Positions 8,327-17,948 are shown, counted from the first letter of the stretch. The stretch is DNA of 64,000 nucleotides from Bacteroidota bacterium (GCA_030706145.1 JAUZPB010000006.1:5135-69134), one strand, 5' to 3'. A program made the numbers and translations. The notes: generated by a model not told the origin, from the sequence alone.

Positions 8327-8773
8327 TTAAAGTTTGGATTTCTCGAGCTCTTTATTGCCGTCAATAAACTTAAGATTGAATTTAAACCTGTCAATTTCCC
8401 ATTTGTCCTGTGACTTTATTAGATGAATATCATAACTGCCTACAAATACTCTTGTATTATTATCTGAGGGGTTCGGCAAATAGTGATAAGCAATTCCATA
8501 ACAGAATACATCAGCCTGATTTCCATTTAGATCTATCAAATAGTTTCCCATTTGATGATGGATTGCCTTAAGCTCTTTTAGTCCTTTTTCCCAACCTTCT
8601 GTTATTTGCTCTGGACTGACTTGCTGTGCTTCTCCTGTCATGTCGAATGTGACGCTAGGGGCAAAGCATTCCTGGACTTTATTCCAACTGCGCTTATCCG
8701 TATTGGTTACCATTAAATTTATGACTTTGATTATTTCCTCTTTTGCAATAAGATCAGCCAATGCTTTTTCCAT
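8327..8773 (-). CDS. SnoaL-like / NTF2 family protein
   Basis: Start MEKALAD. D.R.W...F, HHQMGN..I, G.Y and W.I pattern of SnoaL_4. Confidence 0.85.
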   Translation of the reverse strand: MEKALADLIAKEEIIKVINLMVTNTDKRSWNKVQECFAPSVTFDMTGEAQQVSPEQITEGWEKGLKELKAIHHQMGNYLIDLNGNQADVFCYGIAYHYLPNPSDNNTRVFVGSYDIHLIKSQDKWEIDRFKFNLKFIDGNKELEKSKL

Positions 8774-8976
8774 GTCTGTTCTCCAGTATTTGTTTTCTTT
8801 GGAATCATAATAATATACATAATAGCTTTCGTAAGCTCTAGTCAAGAGTTAATTTATGGCATTATACCGGATAGGGTAGTAGAGCATTTACCAGTAAAAA
8901 CCTTCACTTTTGTCCGCTAGCAGGAATACAGAAACTGTAAATGTGAGTTCTGTATTCCCCTATTGTGCTGCGCATT

Positions 8977-11418: not shown

Positions 11419-11572
11419 ACTCGCCTCCTGTTTTCAAAGTATTTTAAGAAAACGAAACGGTATTGCTATCGCAGAGGTGTTAATTCGTTTTAGCTATAAG
11501 ATAAAAGTTTCCGGGTAAAAAGCTATTCCATTATGTAATGTTGATAGGGGCAATGGTACAAAATAGCAAACT

Positions 11573-11677
11573 TCCATTACTGGACTCCCATTTGTACTCC
11601 AGATTATCTGATGCTTGAACCGTTTAACCACTATGGATAACAATTTTGTCAGTTTGAAATTGAATAGGGATCATTAA
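11573..11677 (+). repeat. att-like scar A1 (most decayed): hairpin, tRNA 3'-end core TTGTACTCC and conserved arm
   Basis: Aligns with 13068-13177, 15596-15701 and the tRNA-Arg terminator/3' end at 17851-17880. Confidence 0.75.
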
Positions 11678-11735
11678 AGTCCAAGCAATGTTGATGATTA
11701 TGGATTTTTTGCAGATATATTTAAATGAGAAGGCA

Positions 11736-12200
11736 TTAATTCTCCATTGGATTTATTAAATCTTCGGTCATGATTAATTGTAGTGAATCAAGATTTAGTT
11801 TATTATCATTACAATAAATATATCCATCAGGAATTACTGTTATTGTATCACCTTTTTTGATTTTATCATCTATTCTAAAGGCTGTCCTGATTTGTTTTTT
11901 ACCTTCGACTACAATTACTTTTGATTCATCATCAACAAAGTGGCAGGGAATCATTCGACCTTTATATCTGATTGTAAGTGAATCAACATAAAGTTTAACG
12001 CTATTTTCAAGTTTATAGTTTTGATAAAAATCAAAGACATGCCCTTGCCAGTTCTGTAGAGTTATATCAACTTTCCCACATTCAAACTTTACGTTGAGAG
12101 TATCTGAATTAGTATTTAAAGGGATTGAGTAGAAAGTATCACAACCTGAAAGGTAAAAAATACTGAAAATAATTGCAGTGAGAAACAGTTTCAATTTCAA
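11736..12200 (-). CDS. Hypothetical lipoprotein
   Basis: TTG start with GAGG RBS. Lipobox LSGC. Confidence 0.75.
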   Translation of the reverse strand: MKLKLFLTAIIFSIFYLSGCDTFYSIPLNTNSDTLNVKFECGKVDITLQNWQGHVFDFYQNYKLENSVKLYVDSLTIRYKGRMIPCHFVDDESKVIVVEGKKQIRTAFRIDDKIKKGDTITVIPDGYIYCNDNKLNLDSLQLIMTEDLINPMEN

Positions 12201-12306
12201 TTGTTTACCTCAGAAAACAGTAGGCGTATAGGGAATTTAACTGACCTTAAATTAAATGTAATCAGGATTATAGATTTCCCATATTTATTTAAGGGACAAA
12301 GCATAT

Positions 12307-12723
12307 TCATAAGAATTTACTTATTTCACTTTTGAATAAACTATATGTATCTCCAAGATTTTCAACAAGCGGTTCCATTTTCTCTGCATATAGATCCAGA
12401 GCATAAGCATGGCTGAAGAAATGCCTGAATGCCAGATATTGCCCTAAAAGCAATTTGCAATCTTCCGACAATATATTTTCTTTAACAGCTTGATCAATCA
12501 GCTCTTTATGCCAAGATTTTCCGGTGGGAATAGGGATTTGATTGTAAATGAAGACCTGCTTGAATATGTTCTCGACTCCATTATAAAAATTATGAAGAAG
12601 CGCCGCTACACCAGCCAGTTCAAGAACAGATAGGTATGGAAGTTTTACTGATAGAGGCATTTCTTTTAATATCTCATCTATATTCTCAAGTTCGGCCTTT
12701 ATCTTCAGGGATAATTTATCCAT
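12307..12723 (-). CDS. HEPN (HepT-like) ribonuclease toxin
   Basis: RHFFSHAY (R-X4-H-X-Y) motif, LHNFYNGVE and G.SWH. Overlaps the MNT gene. Confidence 0.88.
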   Translation of the reverse strand: MDKLSLKIKAELENIDEILKEMPLSVKLPYLSVLELAGVAALLHNFYNGVENIFKQVFIYNQIPIPTGKSWHKELIDQAVKENILSEDCKLLLGQYLAFRHFFSHAYALDLYAEKMEPLVENLGDTYSLFKSEISKFL

Positions 12724-12985
12724 AGATCAGCAGGCCGTCAGATTTAACCATATCAGTAAGCAAGCTTTTTTTCTTCAGGTCAATCAAGTCGACAGGCTTG
12801 GAGAGACTGAAGATCAGTTCGCTGTAAAACTTAAAAAATATATTATCTGGCAGGCCTTCAACTCCAAGGTCAATGTCATTTGATTCCTTGGATGAATCAA
12901 GGTTTGAGCCGAAAAGATATATCTTCGAAACCTTATACCTTTCAGCTATTTCGAGTAGTATTGTTTTATCTTCATTTGAAATCAT
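12716..12985 (-). CDS. Minimal nucleotidyltransferase (MNT/MntA-like) antitoxin
   Basis: LFGS-X8-DIDL and VDLI motifs, 89 aa. Confidence 0.9.
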   Translation of the reverse strand: MISNEDKTILLEIAERYKVSKIYLFGSNLDSSKESNDIDLGVEGLPDNIFFKFYSELIFSLSKPVDLIDLKKKSLLTDMVKSDGLLIYG

Positions 12986-13067
12986 ACCTCAAAATAGCTC
13001 AAAAAATATATTTTTTCAATATGGAGTGAATTATGAGAATTTGGGCTCAATGACCTAGAATAGCAAT

Positions 13068-13177
13068 AGTCCATTGCTGGACTTTCATTTTTGTGCTCCA
13101 GATTATTTGAAGTTAGAACCTGTATGATGACCACGAATTACAACTTCGCAAGGTTGGGGTTCAATTGTACTGAATAA
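13068..13177 (+). repeat. att-like scar A2: hairpin AGTCCA-TTGC-TGGACT, core TTGTGCTCC and conserved arm
   Basis: agtccattgctggactttcatttttgtgctcc versus the tRNA flank agcccagtagtgggctttcatttgtacccc. Confidence 0.8.
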
Positions 13178-13377
13178 AAGGTACAGACTATACATCCTAA
13201 GGTTAAGTCTTTGCATTAGAAGAGAAATGCATCATATGAGGAAAATTAAGTGTAATCAAATCATGATTTCAGCTCATGCAGACTAAAATATAAAATTTCT
13301 CCATGAAAACTATTTTACTTCATAAAAGGTCAGAAGTGTATTGTCTATCATACATCGGGATAAATGCTCTGTTAATG

Positions 13378-13773
13378 CTACCCTTTTATCTGCACTGCTG
13401 GTTCATGCTTATGCTTTCGGCTGATTCTTAGAGCCAATATGCACGCGTAAACGTTCAAAATCAGTCCAATGAAATAAGGTATCCATACATAAGTGCTCCA
13501 GAAATTCATTACCATAATTGGTTCGAAAAGAAACAATGCATTAATGATAATTGGAGCGTACCAGATGCTTATCCGGAAATTTAAAACCATAAAGAAGCAG
13601 CAGATGGCAGTCGAAATTCCCCAGACTAAGCACGTCTTATTTTCCCCGTAAGCAGTTAACCTGAAAATGCTGTCTGCAATAAACCCAACTGCTGTAGTGC
13701 CTATAAGCGCGAAAAGTGCTAAGGCCAGGGCTGCCAGATGCTGACGCAGTAACTGAGCTTTGCTTTTTTCCAT
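13378..13773 (-). CDS. Hypothetical 4-TM membrane protein
   Basis: ATG with GGAGG RBS. Four hydrophobic segments. Confidence 0.7.
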   Translation of the reverse strand: MEKSKAQLLRQHLAALALALFALIGTTAVGFIADSIFRLTAYGENKTCLVWGISTAICCFFMVLNFRISIWYAPIIINALFLFEPIMVMNFWSTYVWIPYFIGLILNVYACILALRISRKHKHEPAVQIKG

Positions 13774-13806
13774 TTCAACCTCCCAAAAGGAAAAGCCTAT
13801 ATGTTT

Positions 13807-15348
13807 TTATTTCAAAAGGATAAATTTCTTTGCAGCCCTGAAACTGCCAGATTCAAGCTTGTATAAATATATACCGCTTGGTAAGTTGCTTCCATTAAAT
13901 TGGACTGAGTAATTTCCAGCCGGTTTATATTCGTCTACAATTGCAGCAATCTTTTCACCTATTGTATTATAGATCGTGAGCTTTACATCTCCATCTCTTG
14001 CAATCGAATAATTTATAGTAGTGGATGGATTAAAGGGATTTGGATAGTTTTGTGATAAATTATATTCCGATGGAATATTAGAACCGCCCTGTTTGACATC
14101 GGTCAATGTAAAATTGATCAGTATGTTTTTTTGGCCGGGATGTACAAGAATTGGTGTCTGACTCAATCCAGATGGCTGGTTAACTGGAAATATATAATAA
14201 TTGTAAATTTTGCTGCTCACATGAAAAACGAAATTACCATTAGGATCGGTGAACAAATTTGTAGAGGCTGAGTCCTTATTTGATGCACTTAGCTGCATAG
14301 AAAAATTAGGAGGATTTCCATTTAAAGTTACTTTACCGCTTATAGTAGAATTTGATTTGAATATCGTTAGATCATGTGTCAGTGTATTGCCTGAGTTTAC
14401 TGTAGGAAAAGTATAAATTGCCATCATCTGTGTTGTATCAAACTGATCACCGGCGGAAATCTGGATGTTATTTTGCGGTAACTCAGTTGATAGTAAGCCT
14501 ATGCGAAAAGCTCCAGCGGTATCACTCAATCCATAACGGTAATAACTGCCATTGTTCCAGGAAATGAAAGCTGCATCCCTGATTAAAGGAGTGCCATCCT
14601 CGTATCTTGCTGTTCCTTTTATCTCTGCAGAAGCCGCAGTTACGGTAAAGTTTTTGGTTGTATAGTTTGGTGTATTGGGGTTTAAAGTAAATTCATATTC
14701 CATTGGTGAAAGAACAGCCGAGCCAAAGACGAGATTATTGTCGGTAGTAAGACGCCAGGGATTTCCTGTAGTATCGGCATTCATCTGAATTGTAAAGTTC
14801 CCATTTGCATCTGTGAGGGCATCCCAGAACTGAGTAGTCTGTCCATTTCCCTGTGCTTCAAGCGTAAGCATAATATTTTGCTTACTAATTCCCGGTGGTA
14901 CAGAAACAGTACCGGAAATAGTTATTGCAGGTGAAGCTAATTTATTGACAATCCCTGTAACAGTTTTATAATTATTATGGTTTTTGAAAAGCATTATATA
15001 ATGAGCAGGAGCAAGACCAAGTTTTGACTGAAAGAGTACATGCCCGTTTTTTGTTCCATCTATATCCGGCGGTCCATGCTGTCCTTTTGGGTCACCGTCT
15101 ATATGGTTAAAAAATATCCATAAAACATCTGTCGAAGGATTAAGAACGCCATTCTGGTCAGTATCAATCCATATCTCAATGAGTGTGGTATCTCCTGGAG
15201 TAGGAACATCATAGCTCCAACCCAACTGATCGCCGCTTGTAATAGTGAAACTGCTGGTTTGACCGTTAACAAGCAGGTTTGTGATTTGTCCATATGACAT
15301 AGCCGTCAAAATGGACATAAATGTCAGAAAAAGTAATATTTTTTTCAT
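13807..15348 (-). CDS. Secreted beta-sandwich repeat protein with T9SS C-terminal sorting domain
   Basis: Signal peptide, ISG.V...TD.NG.F repeats and LSQNYPNPFNPST...SGIYLYKL...KKFILLK. Confidence 0.85.
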   Translation of the reverse strand: MKKILLFLTFMSILTAMSYGQITNLLVNGQTSSFTITSGDQLGWSYDVPTPGDTTLIEIWIDTDQNGVLNPSTDVLWIFFNHIDGDPKGQHGPPDIDGTKNGHVLFQSKLGLAPAHYIMLFKNHNNYKTVTGIVNKLASPAITISGTVSVPPGISKQNIMLTLEAQGNGQTTQFWDALTDANGNFTIQMNADTTGNPWRLTTDNNLVFGSAVLSPMEYEFTLNPNTPNYTTKNFTVTAASAEIKGTARYEDGTPLIRDAAFISWNNGSYYRYGLSDTAGAFRIGLLSTELPQNNIQISAGDQFDTTQMMAIYTFPTVNSGNTLTHDLTIFKSNSTISGKVTLNGNPPNFSMQLSASNKDSASTNLFTDPNGNFVFHVSSKIYNYYIFPVNQPSGLSQTPILVHPGQKNILINFTLTDVKQGGSNIPSEYNLSQNYPNPFNPSTTINYSIARDGDVKLTIYNTIGEKIAAIVDEYKPAGNYSVQFNGSNLPSGIYLYKLESGSFRAAKKFILLK

Positions 15349-15595
15349 TCTAAGGTCCTCAATTATTTCAATTAATTTAATTAGGGGGGACTTAGAAAAA
15401 AGGTCATAAAATTTGCATTTAATACAGGGAAACCAGAATTAAATAAAAGTGATACTTCTTAAGAGAGTAGATATTAGTTTTGAATTTAAGTCCTGAAAAA
15501 GATCACAACTTATGTGGCCGAAAAGATTATTCTTGATTTTCCGGGTAGCACCTTAATTATTGTCGGGATAGAAAACCACCGCTTATCTTTAAGAC

Positions 15596-15701
15596 AAAGA
15601 AAGCTCAGATAAATGAGTCTTTCTTTTTGTACCCCAGATTATATGACGTTAGAACTTGTTTGTTAAAGATAGATTACAATTTTGCCGGATTGAGGCAATG
15701 A
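15596..15701 (+). repeat. att-like scar A3 (best conserved): hairpin, exact core TTTGTACCCC and conserved arm
   Basis: Core is identical to 17871-17880 (tRNA-Arg 3' end). Arm reads LYPRLYDVRTCLLKIDYNFAGLRQ*. Confidence 0.82.
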
Positions 15702-15707
15702 TTAGTG

Positions 15708-15747
15708 TTGACAAAAGGCACACAATGTTATAAATTGAGATATAACA
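15708..15747 (+). promoter_or_regulatory. Sigma70 promoter of the TA operon with an overlapping operator palindrome
   Basis: TTGACA-17-TAAATT. A perfect inverted repeat TGTTATA-N8-TATAACA (15726-15747) overlaps the -10. Confidence 0.7.
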
Positions 15748-15761
15748 AAATAACATGCCGG

Positions 15762-16034
15762 ATGAAGTATTTCGAATGGAATGAAGCGAAAAATGAGCGG
15801 CTTAAAGATGAAAGAAAGATTTCATTTGAGATTATAATAAGCCAGATTGAGATGGGATACCTTCTCGATGTTTTAAGGCATCCGAATAAGGAGAAATATG
15901 ACGACCAGAAGATATTTGTAGTTGAATATGAAAGTTATGCGTATTTGGTCCCGTTTGTAGAAGATGATGAAAAGGTATTCTTAAAGACAATTATTCCAAG
16001 TAGAAAGACCACAAAGAAGTATTTAGAAGGGTAG
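15762..16034 (+). CDS. BrnT-like toxin
   Basis: MKYFEWNEAKNERLK..R.ISFE and FLKTIIPSRK. Confidence 0.85.
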   Translation: MKYFEWNEAKNERLKDERKISFEIIISQIEMGYLLDVLRHPNKEKYDDQKIFVVEYESYAYLVPFVEDDEKVFLKTIIPSRKTTKKYLEG

Positions 16035-16038
16035 TAAA

Positions 16039-16305
16039 ATGAAAAAGTTGGAGAAAAGTGAGGCAGAGCTCCTGAAGTCTGTTGAAGATGGCGAATGGCA
16101 GTCAGTAGGGGGTGAGAAAAAGAAAGCTGAATACGAACGTTATGCAAAAAATACTGCGGCCAAGAATAAAAGGATAAACATACGTTTATCGGAAAAGGAC
16201 CTTGCCAACCTAAAGGCTAAATCTCTGGAAGAGGGGATTCCGTATCAGACACTTATCGCCAGTATTATTCATAAATATGTACATGGAAAGTTCAGAGAAA
16301 TCTGA
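16039..16305 (+). CDS. CopG/BrnA-like RHH antitoxin
   Basis: RINIRLS..DL..LK.K...EGIPYQTLI. Confidence 0.85.
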   Translation: MKKLEKSEAELLKSVEDGEWQSVGGEKKKAEYERYAKNTAAKNKRINIRLSEKDLANLKAKSLEEGIPYQTLIASIIHKYVHGKFREI

Positions 16306-16327
16306 GCTGTAAACAGGTTTTTAAAAC

Positions 16328-16357
16328 AAATAATCCCGGCGTGGACCGGGATTATTT
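16328..16357. terminator. Bidirectional terminator between convergent genes
   Basis: AAATAATCCCGG-CGTGGA-CCGGGATTATTT. Confidence 0.85.
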
Positions 16358-16368
16358 TGCTTATACTG

Positions 16369-17355
16369 TTATAAATTATTCTTCATAAATTTTTCATATC
16401 CGCTTAACCTGAAAACCTCGCCGGGAGAGAGGTTGTAAATATCTTTCCAGGATTCTGCTCCGTTATTGTTTATGTAGGCCTGGCAAATCCTGAAGCCTAT
16501 GAAATAAGCTATCCTGTCGGGAGCCCCGTCAAAGATAAACCGGTGGGCTCTGGCAAATTTATTTTTCATATTATCATCAGTTGAATCCAATCGGCCCTTT
16601 GTATAATCATATATCTTGTTTTCGTTGTTTATGCACCATTGCCATTCTTTATCTGTAAAACCTATGTTTTTAGCCGGAGATATTTTTTTATCCCAATACA
16701 AGTAATTAACAAAACAGGAGAATCCTTCATTTATAATTCTGCATAATAAGGTCCCGTCATCAGCCTGAATTTTGCCCATTATCTGATGATTGATTTCATG
16801 GGGCAATGCAAATAATAGCTGTTCGTATCCTTCACCCCCGATGCCGAAAAAATCTGCAAACATTCCTATATTTGCAAGGCCTTCCATATTAGCTGCCTTA
16901 TTCCCATATATCAGATACCATTTCCCCTCAGGCACTCTGCCTGTCAGTTGTTTTAATTTGCCGGCAGTTGCAGTGAACACTGAATCGAAGTCAACTTGAA
17001 ATGGGATTAAAAAGCCGGGGGTCGCAGAGCTAATCAAATTTTCCCAGTTTTTGCCGGTCCACTCTTTAAAACCCTGTTCATCAAAAAATCCGTTCCAGAA
17101 ATCCTCACAAGGGAAGTAAACGTCCTTAATAAATTGTGCGATTCTTTCCTCTCTGCCTTTGCCCTTAGAATTGTACACCGATATGACTTCTTGTTTATAG
17201 ATATTAAACACCTGAACTTGACCGTTCAAAATGGACAGATGAATCTGCGGCTTTTTCTGAACAAGGGAATAGAACTTTTCAAAATCATCCTGAGGAAAGC
17301 CTGAAGAGCTGAAAGCCAGGGCAGCAAGAACACTAATAAGAATAAACTTCCACAT
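16369..17355 (-). CDS. Secreted putative Zn metalloprotease (DUF2268/GldB-like)
   Basis: Signal peptide, HEINH (HExxH) plus INEG, and PDRIAYFIGFRI. Confidence 0.75.
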   Translation of the reverse strand: MWKFILISVLAALAFSSSGFPQDDFEKFYSLVQKKPQIHLSILNGQVQVFNIYKQEVISVYNSKGKGREERIAQFIKDVYFPCEDFWNGFFDEQGFKEWTGKNWENLISSATPGFLIPFQVDFDSVFTATAGKLKQLTGRVPEGKWYLIYGNKAANMEGLANIGMFADFFGIGGEGYEQLLFALPHEINHQIMGKIQADDGTLLCRIINEGFSCFVNYLYWDKKISPAKNIGFTDKEWQWCINNENKIYDYTKGRLDSTDDNMKNKFARAHRFIFDGAPDRIAYFIGFRICQAYINNNGAESWKDIYNLSPGEVFRLSGYEKFMKNNL

Positions 17356-17496
17356 TGTTCCTCCAGATATAATTAGGTCGGAAGTATTATGTATCCTTAG
17401 ATTTCTATCAAGTTATTACAGGGGGAAGGGGAAAATAGTGATTTTGTCAAATAAATACAGAATAATCTTTAAAGTATTTTCAGGCTGTGAATCCAT

Positions 17497-17729
17497 AAGT
17501 TTCCCATTTGATGATGGATTGCCTAAAGCTCTTTTAGTCCTGTTTCCCACCCGTCTGTTATTTGCCCGGGACTGACCTGTCGTGCTTCGCCAGTCATGTC
17601 GAATAAGACGCTTGGGGCAAAGCACTCCCGGACTTTGTCCCAATTGCGCTTATCCGTATTAATTACCATGAGGTTTATGACTTTGGTTATTTCGTCCTTT
17701 GCAATAAGATCAGCCAATGCTTTTTCCAT
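17497..17729 (-). pseudogene. Truncated copy of the SnoaL-like gene at 8327-8773
   Basis: Clear nucleotide paralogue. AAG>TAG at 17523-17525, and homology is lost after ...HHQMGN. Confidence 0.85.
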
Positions 17730-17843
17730 GCCTGGTCCCCTGTATTTGTTTTCTTTGGAATAAAATAATATACATAATAGCATTCTGAAGCTCTAGTGCA
17801 GAGTTTATAGACAATATACCGGGTAGGATGGTGTGGTTTAAAA

Positions 17844-17870
17844 TGAGAAAAGCCCAGTAGTGGGCTTTCA
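17844..17870 (-). terminator. tRNA terminator
   Basis: Minus strand AAAGCCCA-CTAC-TGGGCTTT followed by TCTCATTTT. Confidence 0.8.
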
Positions 17871-17874
17871 TTTG

Positions 17875-17948
17875 TACCCCCGAGAGGATTCGAACCTCCG
17901 ACCTGCGGTTTAGGAAACCGTCGCTCTATCCTGCTGAGCTACGGGGGC
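17875..17948 (-). tRNA. tRNA-Arg (anticodon CCT)
   Basis: GCCCCCGTAGCTCAGCAGGATAGAGCGACGGTTTCCTAAACCGCAGGTCGGAGGTTCGAATCCTCTCGGGGGTA folds as a cloverleaf. CCA is not encoded. Confidence 0.95.

Follow-up and report, generated by a model that had tools for sequence, protein, structure and literature searches.

Direct repeats beside a tRNA-Arg(CCT) gene as likely remnants of large serine recombinase attachment sites

A 64,000-nt stretch of DNA from a Bacteroidota bacterium (GCA_030706145.1 JAUZPB010000006.1:5135-69134; hereafter the window) contains a tRNA-Arg(CCT) gene and, on its 3' side, three direct repeats (A1, A2 and A3), each made up of a short core, in which the final bases of the tRNA are repeated, and, to its right, an arm of about 75 nt. 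The arms are most likely orphan element-side (P') halves of the attachment (att) site of a large serine recombinase (LSR), and we hold it somewhat more probable than its opposite that A1-A3 are relic attL-type junctions of LSR elements integrated at the 3' end of this tRNA. An earlier reading, made from the sequence alone, had proposed that the arms encode a short peptide, the orphan C-terminal tail of a recombinase whose open reading frame (ORF) spans its att site. That interpretation was partly supported: the spanning architecture was right in kind and the three repeats are real, and their coding signature is weak.

The source genome comprises 5.3 Mb, and window coordinates are used throughout. 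The tRNA-Arg(CCT) gene was called by ARAGORN at 17874-17948 on the minus strand (Rfam score of 64.6 bits), and its 3' end coincides with the att core. The repeats are located at positions 11586-11661 (A1), 13085-13161 (A2) and 15621-15696 (A3) and are 74-84% alike. An nhmmer profile of A1-A3 recovered just these three sites from the whole genome with E-values of 6e-20 or better, the next match having an E-value of 0.53. The cores are TTTGTACTCC in A1, TTTGTGCTCC in A2 and TTTGTACCCC in A3, and the tRNA counterpart is TTTGTACCCCC. The motif TTTGT(A/G)C(C/T)CC is common to all three cores and the tRNA 3' end, a shared core of the kind that LSR att sites have, and the duplication of tRNA sequence is limited to 7-10 nt. 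A terminator-like hairpin lies left of A1 (11554-11590, degenerate), left of A2 (13068-13083; AGTCCA..TGGACT followed by a T run, terminator-like on both strands) and directly after the tRNA (17848-17869, minus strand, resembling an intrinsic terminator). Alignment showed the left flank of A1 to be homologous to those of A2 and the tRNA (repeat family D1). No left hairpin accompanies A3 in the source genome.

Counted from the G of GTAC, the distance to TTAGAAC is 20 nt in each of the three arms, and the corresponding distance from GTAC to TTCGAAC of the T-arm is 15 nt in the tRNA. According to PMC3783163, the outer motif bound by the zinc-ribbon domain (ZD) of serine integrases is 5 bp closer to the centre of attB than to that of attP, half-sites being about 25 bp long. 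Such a motif was found here in both P' and B' with the 5-bp shift, the tRNA-Arg(CCT) 3' end being the putative B' half-site of attB. The tRNA-Asn sites of a related genome (G007) and of contig C323 of the source genome are arranged likewise. In G007, an intact LSR gene abuts tRNA-Asn, and about 20.7 kb off there is a hairpin followed by GCTCCGC, 13 nt and TTAGAACCTGTTTTATGACC. This distal arm shares 18 of 19 nt (TTAGAACCTGTTTKATGAC) with the window arms despite a different core, and the spacing of 20 versus 15 nt is kept. In the source genome (C323:1346-1822), all that is left of an LSR with 70% identity to that of G007 is its last 147 residues, which overlap tRNA-Asn; the distal arm (position ~17499, 16 kb from tRNA-Asn) consists of a hairpin, GCTATGC, 13 nt and TTAAAACCTGTTT, again with 20 versus 15 nt. 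This is an LSR element in decay of which both ends can still be recognized. Given the 5-bp shift and the parallels at the tRNA-Asn sites, the best-conserved ~32 nt of the arm are explained as binding DNA and no peptide is needed. The distal 40 nt (..DYNFAGLRQ) are unaccounted for by binding DNA and carry the weak coding-like signal. At the tRNA-Asn element of G007 (L046:11590-11730; G007:C71, minus strand), the distal end was seen to consist of two tandem units; the outer one includes 55 nt that resemble tRNA-Asn, with the anticodon arm altered, and a similar piece is located upstream of the tRNA itself.

Recombinase genes that cross the core were found in related genomes. The sole serine recombinase of the source genome is encoded on contig C277, and its protein sequence was searched against 401 genomes of the order. 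Of the 16 other loci, 12 have a tRNA according to ARAGORN, and in 11 of these 12 the recombinase ORF enters the tRNA from its 3' end, the two genes being on opposite strands. A profile built from these LSRs (A4) retrieved 30 loci from the same genomes. Antisense tRNA sequence supplies the end of the ORF in 20 of them (tRNA-Asn in 18, tRNA-Arg(CCG) and tRNA-Arg(CCT) in one each), and in one more the ORF stops 11 nt short of a tRNA-Ser. The Arg(CCT) case is the LSR P0002 of G201, in which TTG TAC CC. is read as LYP through the core, in the same frame as in the sequence-only reading. Its C-terminus over tRNA-Arg(CCT) is ...NFRRALYPRQDSNLWPTV before the stop codon (also written ...ALYPRQDSNLWPTV and ...LYPRQDSNLWPTV). 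Recombinases ending in ...LYPREDSNL next to tRNA-Arg had been predicted from the window, and this class is now represented by P0002 and also by P0008 from a large protein collection (C-terminus ...WYPREDSNLRPTV); the frame read across the window's own tRNA, HLYPREDSNLRPAV followed by a stop, was likewise confirmed. Among 96 relatives of P0008, 38 have tRNA-antisense-like end motifs and 19 stop right after the core.

A single cluster formed at 90% identity contains two tails: P0004 and P0214 end in ..SSYYLDWL-HVHSNSEYSIYY, versus ..SSYYLDWL-REQDSNLQPFG in P0215. Two versions of one enzyme with different ends therefore exist, which agrees with the prediction of a tail swap upon integration. Furthermore, P0016 and P0018 have long non-tRNA tails that are alike, and P0017 has a tRNA-type tail. 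The proposal of a recombinase spanning its att site is thus borne out as regards the architecture (20 of 30 LSR loci) and the exchange of tails. The LSR profile applied to viral contigs gave 80 generic LSRs, none of which ends in a tRNA or is accompanied by an arm, and no close relatives of the G201 LSR were found in genome contigs beyond its own record. The distal att site of the tRNA-Arg(CCG) element of G023 was not found within 60 kb, and a k-mer search for distal sites in G388, G391, G016, G199 and G155 returned chance-level matches only.

These observations suggest how the repeats could have arisen. Each unit comprises a terminator hairpin, a short core (TTTGT[A/G]C..) and an element-side half-site. 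The T-arm motif of the tRNA recurs in the P' half (TTAGAACC) at a distance from the crossover that is 5 bp greater, an offset by which LSRs distinguish attP from attB. Since the LSR gene in this lineage has no stop before the core, the ORF of the free element would end in the P' arm, and after integration it ends in antisense tRNA sequence. The arm peptide would be the phage-form end of the LSR, stranded at the far junction upon integration, and is probably an abandoned gene end, not a working protein. The recombinase genes would have been lost since. The arms bound cassettes without recombinases, which contain toxin-antitoxin pairs in the window and Wadjet and AbiE in relatives. The particular arms of the window would have been made by such an LSR, and binding DNA is predicted to be what they were mainly kept for. 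A bolder extension, to which we give little credence, is that the LSR att site acts as an enzyme switch, with a P'-encoded tail in the free form and a tRNA-antisense tail in the prophage controlling stability, activity or direction, and with the arms as docking sites at which recombinase-less cassettes are shuffled in trans.

A number of results weigh against the relic interpretation. Neither the window array nor the four related ones yielded an LSR gene or remnant, and the window's contig contains no recombinase. None of 209 LSR homologues carries an arm-type tail, and in this part the proposal of an att-spanning enzyme was not supported. Conservation of the arm extends 45-75 nt from the core, beyond the 25-bp half-site of an LSR. 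By reading, no clear inverted partner of the ZD motif was seen in the hairpin flanks, which hold in-frame stops. The excess of third-position changes among 13 distinct arms from five genomes gave a one-sided permutation p of 0.05-0.15. The LSR of contig C277 (542 aa) has its start codon, not its end, at a copy of the core, on the other strand. Serine recombinase PF00239 is absent from four of the five genomes that were checked among those with weak arm-like matches. The broken SnoaL_4 gene copy adjoining the tRNA duplicates positions 8542-8875, a misfit with plain successive insertion at the tRNA. Finally, the rules published for LSRs exclude recombination between attP and attR; attR should therefore not serve as an LSR target, and the tandem series needs another route.

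The translations of the arms given previously were reproduced: A3 reads RLYDVRTCLLKIDYNFAGLRQ and A2 reads RLFEVRTCMMTTNYNFARLGFNCTE, each followed by a stop, and A1 reads RLSDA followed by a stop and then a 1-nt deletion. With its core, the arm of A3 (15621-15701, plus strand) is open as far as the TGA at 15699-15701, and that of A2 (13085-13177, plus strand) as far as the TAA at 13175-13177; the arm of A1, on the same strand, is decayed, a TGA replacing an AGA codon in addition to the deletion. The coding signature claimed for A2 and A3 turned out not to be significant, since their differences, counted on the alignment, are distributed 7:5:10 over codon positions 1:2:3 (chi-square not significant). 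In seven long arms, the ratio of nonsynonymous to synonymous polymorphism (pN/pS) was 0.59 in the proposed frame, the lowest of six (0.65-1.00 in the other five), which counts in favour of the relic interpretation; this value was reached by 8% of the column shuffles that served as the null.

The low pN/pS could also be expected if the arm encoded a small protein translated today, for example, from the TTG of the core. Its open frame extends over 21-25 codons in A3, A2 and two relatives, and leucine is retained through a TTG/TTA/CTA change. Nevertheless, a start codon is absent in most arms, most have a same-frame stop in the hairpin just upstream, and three of 13 have lost the frame to a stop or a frameshift no later than the RTC codons. 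With no protein match found and the coding tests not significant, we regard a present-day protein as very improbable, and the coding claim for the arms is unproven.

A sequence model built from the arms (R1) had matches in a sister genus of the same family, namely in G010 (four), G013 (three), G012 (three) and G007 (two). In three of the eight loci retrieved (from G010, G007 and G012), tRNA-Arg(CCT) is present in the expected orientation. The cargo of these relatives includes a complete Wadjet system, AbiEi/AbiEii, BrnA, MNT, a zeta-like kinase and proteins of the type IX secretion system (T9SS), and no recombinase was found among 51 scanned ORFs. Since the arms are kept while the cargo varies, they bound a conserved, variable island. 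In G010:C30, two arms enclose one cassette made up of the whole Wadjet (JetABCD-like) system (L040:11203-17725), and AbiEi/AbiEii adjoins the tRNA in G007, G010 and G012. On the minus strand of L018 (G003:C13), an Asn-type arm is located 117 nt from the distal half of an Arg-type arm (positions ~1382 and ~1499), the latter reading ..GTFLITSDYSFARL up to a stop.

Beyond this family, matches to R1 were weak (E 0.001-0.1), being arm-like in alignment; no tRNA was found near them in 3-kb loci, nor within 35-40 kb in the four that were examined. One match, in G201:C150, was rejected as an att site because it sits in coding-looking sequence. A strict exact pattern detected no arms in genome contigs beyond two known relatives, and a loose one gave 67 loci, none of which scored with R1. 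Exact-pattern scans returned no arms from viral contigs and 22 loci from metagenome contigs, none of them convincing; the best one, L230, is an unrelated intergenic stretch.

The variable cargo could alternatively mean that recombinase-less cassettes still use the arms as live sites for recombination, as in integron cassette arrays or SCC elements without recombinases, the arms being kept because they function and the cassettes being moved in and out by a recombinase encoded elsewhere. Unrelated genes share the arms in five genomes (HepT/MNT, BrnTA and T9SS here; Wadjet, AbiE and a zeta-like kinase elsewhere), and shared genes occur in differing order between genomes. Arrays in metagenome-assembled genomes break into short contigs at the arms (3.7-7.1 kb in G012). 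Moreover, a contig of soil run X7 joins a different, canonical hairpin flank exactly at 15627, within the core of A3, and another ends at 15616; the X7 junction is a weak hint that the cores are real breakpoints. Live sites would hardly be expected to include three visibly decayed arms among 13 or to be just 74-84% alike within one genome, and C277, which encodes the genome's sole serine recombinase, is unrelated to them on the P' side. Neither circular junctions nor empty sites were found in the soil-run contigs, which drop rare forms. Taken together, live sites seem unlikely to us. The best-matching sequencing runs contain 0.25-0.45 of the window words, and their contigs leave bins uncovered, for example, 11905-12506 (X1) and 16420-17322 (X5), which proves nothing. 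Contigs from two soil runs of one study also show a 936-nt skip from 11745 to 12682, a deletion inside cassette 1 that is not bounded by arms and removes most of the 154-aa ORF and of HepT.

The 3' ends of tRNA genes are classic targets of tyrosine integrases, and the sequence-only reading had left the choice between these enzymes and LSRs open. The arms could accordingly be non-coding arm-type or core-type binding DNA of a tyrosine integrase, their likeness to LSR sites being coincidental. Conservation reaching 45-75 nt would suit such sites, as would the direct repeat CAGATTAYA, which occurs twice about 39 nt apart in the manner of arm-type sites, and the source genome encodes four or five tyrosine recombinases. 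None of these enzymes, however, is encoded on any array contig in the five genomes, just 7-10 nt of the tRNA is duplicated, and the 5-bp shift is a hallmark of LSRs. In the same order, LSRs occupy this exact position on tRNA-Arg(CCT), tRNA-Arg(CCG) and tRNA-Asn. The LSR half of the earlier alternative was thus retained and a tyrosine integrase was considered doubtful, slightly more so than live sites.

Contig C277 offers a further model. It is phage-like, with genes for tail, holin, endolysin, ParB, repressors and a DnaD-like protein in free-phage order, and at C277:25303-25320 (L116:11304-11321) an 18-nt exact copy of the tRNA-Arg(CCT) 3' end and its flank abuts the LSR start codon. This copy ties the phage contig to the host. 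If the elements of the window were built in this way, the core would mark the start of the LSR gene, read on the minus strand, with the arm as its promoter and ribosome site (TATAAT, GGGG, ATG). A sigma-70-like site, TTAACA-17-TATAAT (11/12), is indeed present on the minus strand within A3 (15666->15638) and is directed at the core; on this strand it is followed by GGGG, with ATGAAAG directly adjoining the core in the A2 and tRNA flanks. Only A3 has a good -35 element, though, the P' side of C277 is unlike the arms, arms of the tRNA-Asn type have the TTAGAACC block in common with them but no TATAAT, and the flanks are not LSR-like beyond ATGAAAGC. We find this origin improbable, more so than a tyrosine integrase. 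The 18-nt site is probably the attP of a second, unrelated phage using the same tRNA end.

Several other identities of the repeats were rejected. A structured RNA was dismissed, as no fold signal on either strand and no Rfam family was found. A tRNA gene or decayed tRNA copy was dismissed since Rfam at E up to 1 finds just the real tRNA; the alignment of the arms to the tRNA is no better than that of shuffles (fraction scoring at least as high: 0.77, 1.0 and 0.36). A 'tRNA-Ser' call made by relaxed ARAGORN lies inside the HepT gene and was taken as false. Integron attC sites were rejected on the basis of fold z values of -0.10 to 0.46 (both strands) and the lack of a PF00589 match on the contig.

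The genes between the repeats were annotated using a Pfam scan. Cassette 1 (11736-12985, minus strand) contains a 154-aa ORF without a family, a HepT-like gene (12307-12723) and an MNT nucleotidyltransferase gene (12716-12985); the latter two are a toxin-antitoxin pair. Cassette 2 (13378-15348, minus strand) encodes a 131-aa protein without a family and a 513-aa protein with a T9SS C-terminal sorting domain. Segment 3 (15705-17783) contains a promoter-like site (15708-15736), BrnT-like (15705-16034) and BrnA/CopG-like (16039-16305) genes on the plus strand, and a GldB_lipo/DUF2268-like gene (16369-17355) and a frameshifted SnoaL_4 fragment (17416-17783) on the minus strand. In three genomes, A3-type arms run on into a conserved promoter-like block, TTGACA..N17..TAAAT, located before BrnT/BrnA (window 15700-15740; L039:16361-16400; L040:17862-17900). 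The 5' part of SnoaL_4 and its upstream flank are present twice, at 8542-8875 and 17498-17827, with 86% identity; the copy at 8327-8845 is intact, and the one adjacent to the tRNA is frameshifted (ORFs 17523-17783 and 17416-17643). In addition, 47 nt of another contig of the source genome (C333:1951-1996) are 83% identical to the left flank and core of A3 (E 7e-6); they are located at the start of a response-regulator-like gene and may be due to chance or be a remnant.

The proposed origin of the repeats would account for the variable island that several Ignavibacteriales-like genomes from soil have by tRNA-Arg(CCT), with its defence and toxin-antitoxin genes. It suggests a lineage of serine integrases that reads tRNA T-arms and is hence able to move among tRNA-Asn, tRNA-Arg(CCG) and tRNA-Arg(CCT), and in which a gene product changes its C-terminus on integration. 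A literature search, which covered partial texts, found no published description of an att-spanning ORF layout for serine integrases at tRNAs. If the tail affects activity or direction, it could be a new control point for enzymes that are widely used in genome engineering. Should the shuffling of cassettes in trans be true, a serine recombinase would be moving defence and toxin-antitoxin cassettes at tRNA genes in the manner of an integron.

The sites resemble several known systems in part. Integron cassette arrays and clusters of attC sites lacking an integron integrase (CALINs) are similar in their cassettes of one to four genes, rich in toxin-antitoxin pairs and without recombinases, and in the conserved repeat of 60-100 nt. 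Unlike integrons, the present array is anchored at a tRNA, and it has no attC hairpin fold, no R''/R' core pair by reading and no integron integrase. Composite islands of the staphylococcal cassette chromosome mec (SCCmec) are also LSR-dependent elements that stand in tandem at the 3' end of one gene with short direct repeats, and some units, as in pseudo-SCC, lack recombinase genes. However, SCC targets rlmH, not a tRNA, and its Ccr enzymes belong to a different LSR branch. Integrases of SSV1-type archaeal viruses have attP within the integrase gene and a tRNA target; there, the gene of a tyrosine recombinase is split into two large parts, whereas here the last 12-37 codons are exchanged.

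The sites of the Listeria phage A118/LI integrase, as described in PMC3783163, resemble those of the window in the short common core, in the outer motif placed 5 bp further out on the element side and in requiring no accessory arm sites, and both are phage or element integration systems. Here, however, the target is a tRNA 3' end and T-arm instead of a protein-coding gene, the recombinase ORF crosses the site, conservation extends past 25 bp, and the window sites form a tandem series without a recombinase gene. The known parallel for the change of a C-terminus is the repressor of BPs-type mycobacteriophages: according to PMC3694055, attP lies inside the repressor ORF, the C-termini of the free and integrated forms differ and attB is a tRNA. 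In those phages it is the repressor that is split, by a tyrosine integrase, whereas here the serine recombinase gene itself changes its end.

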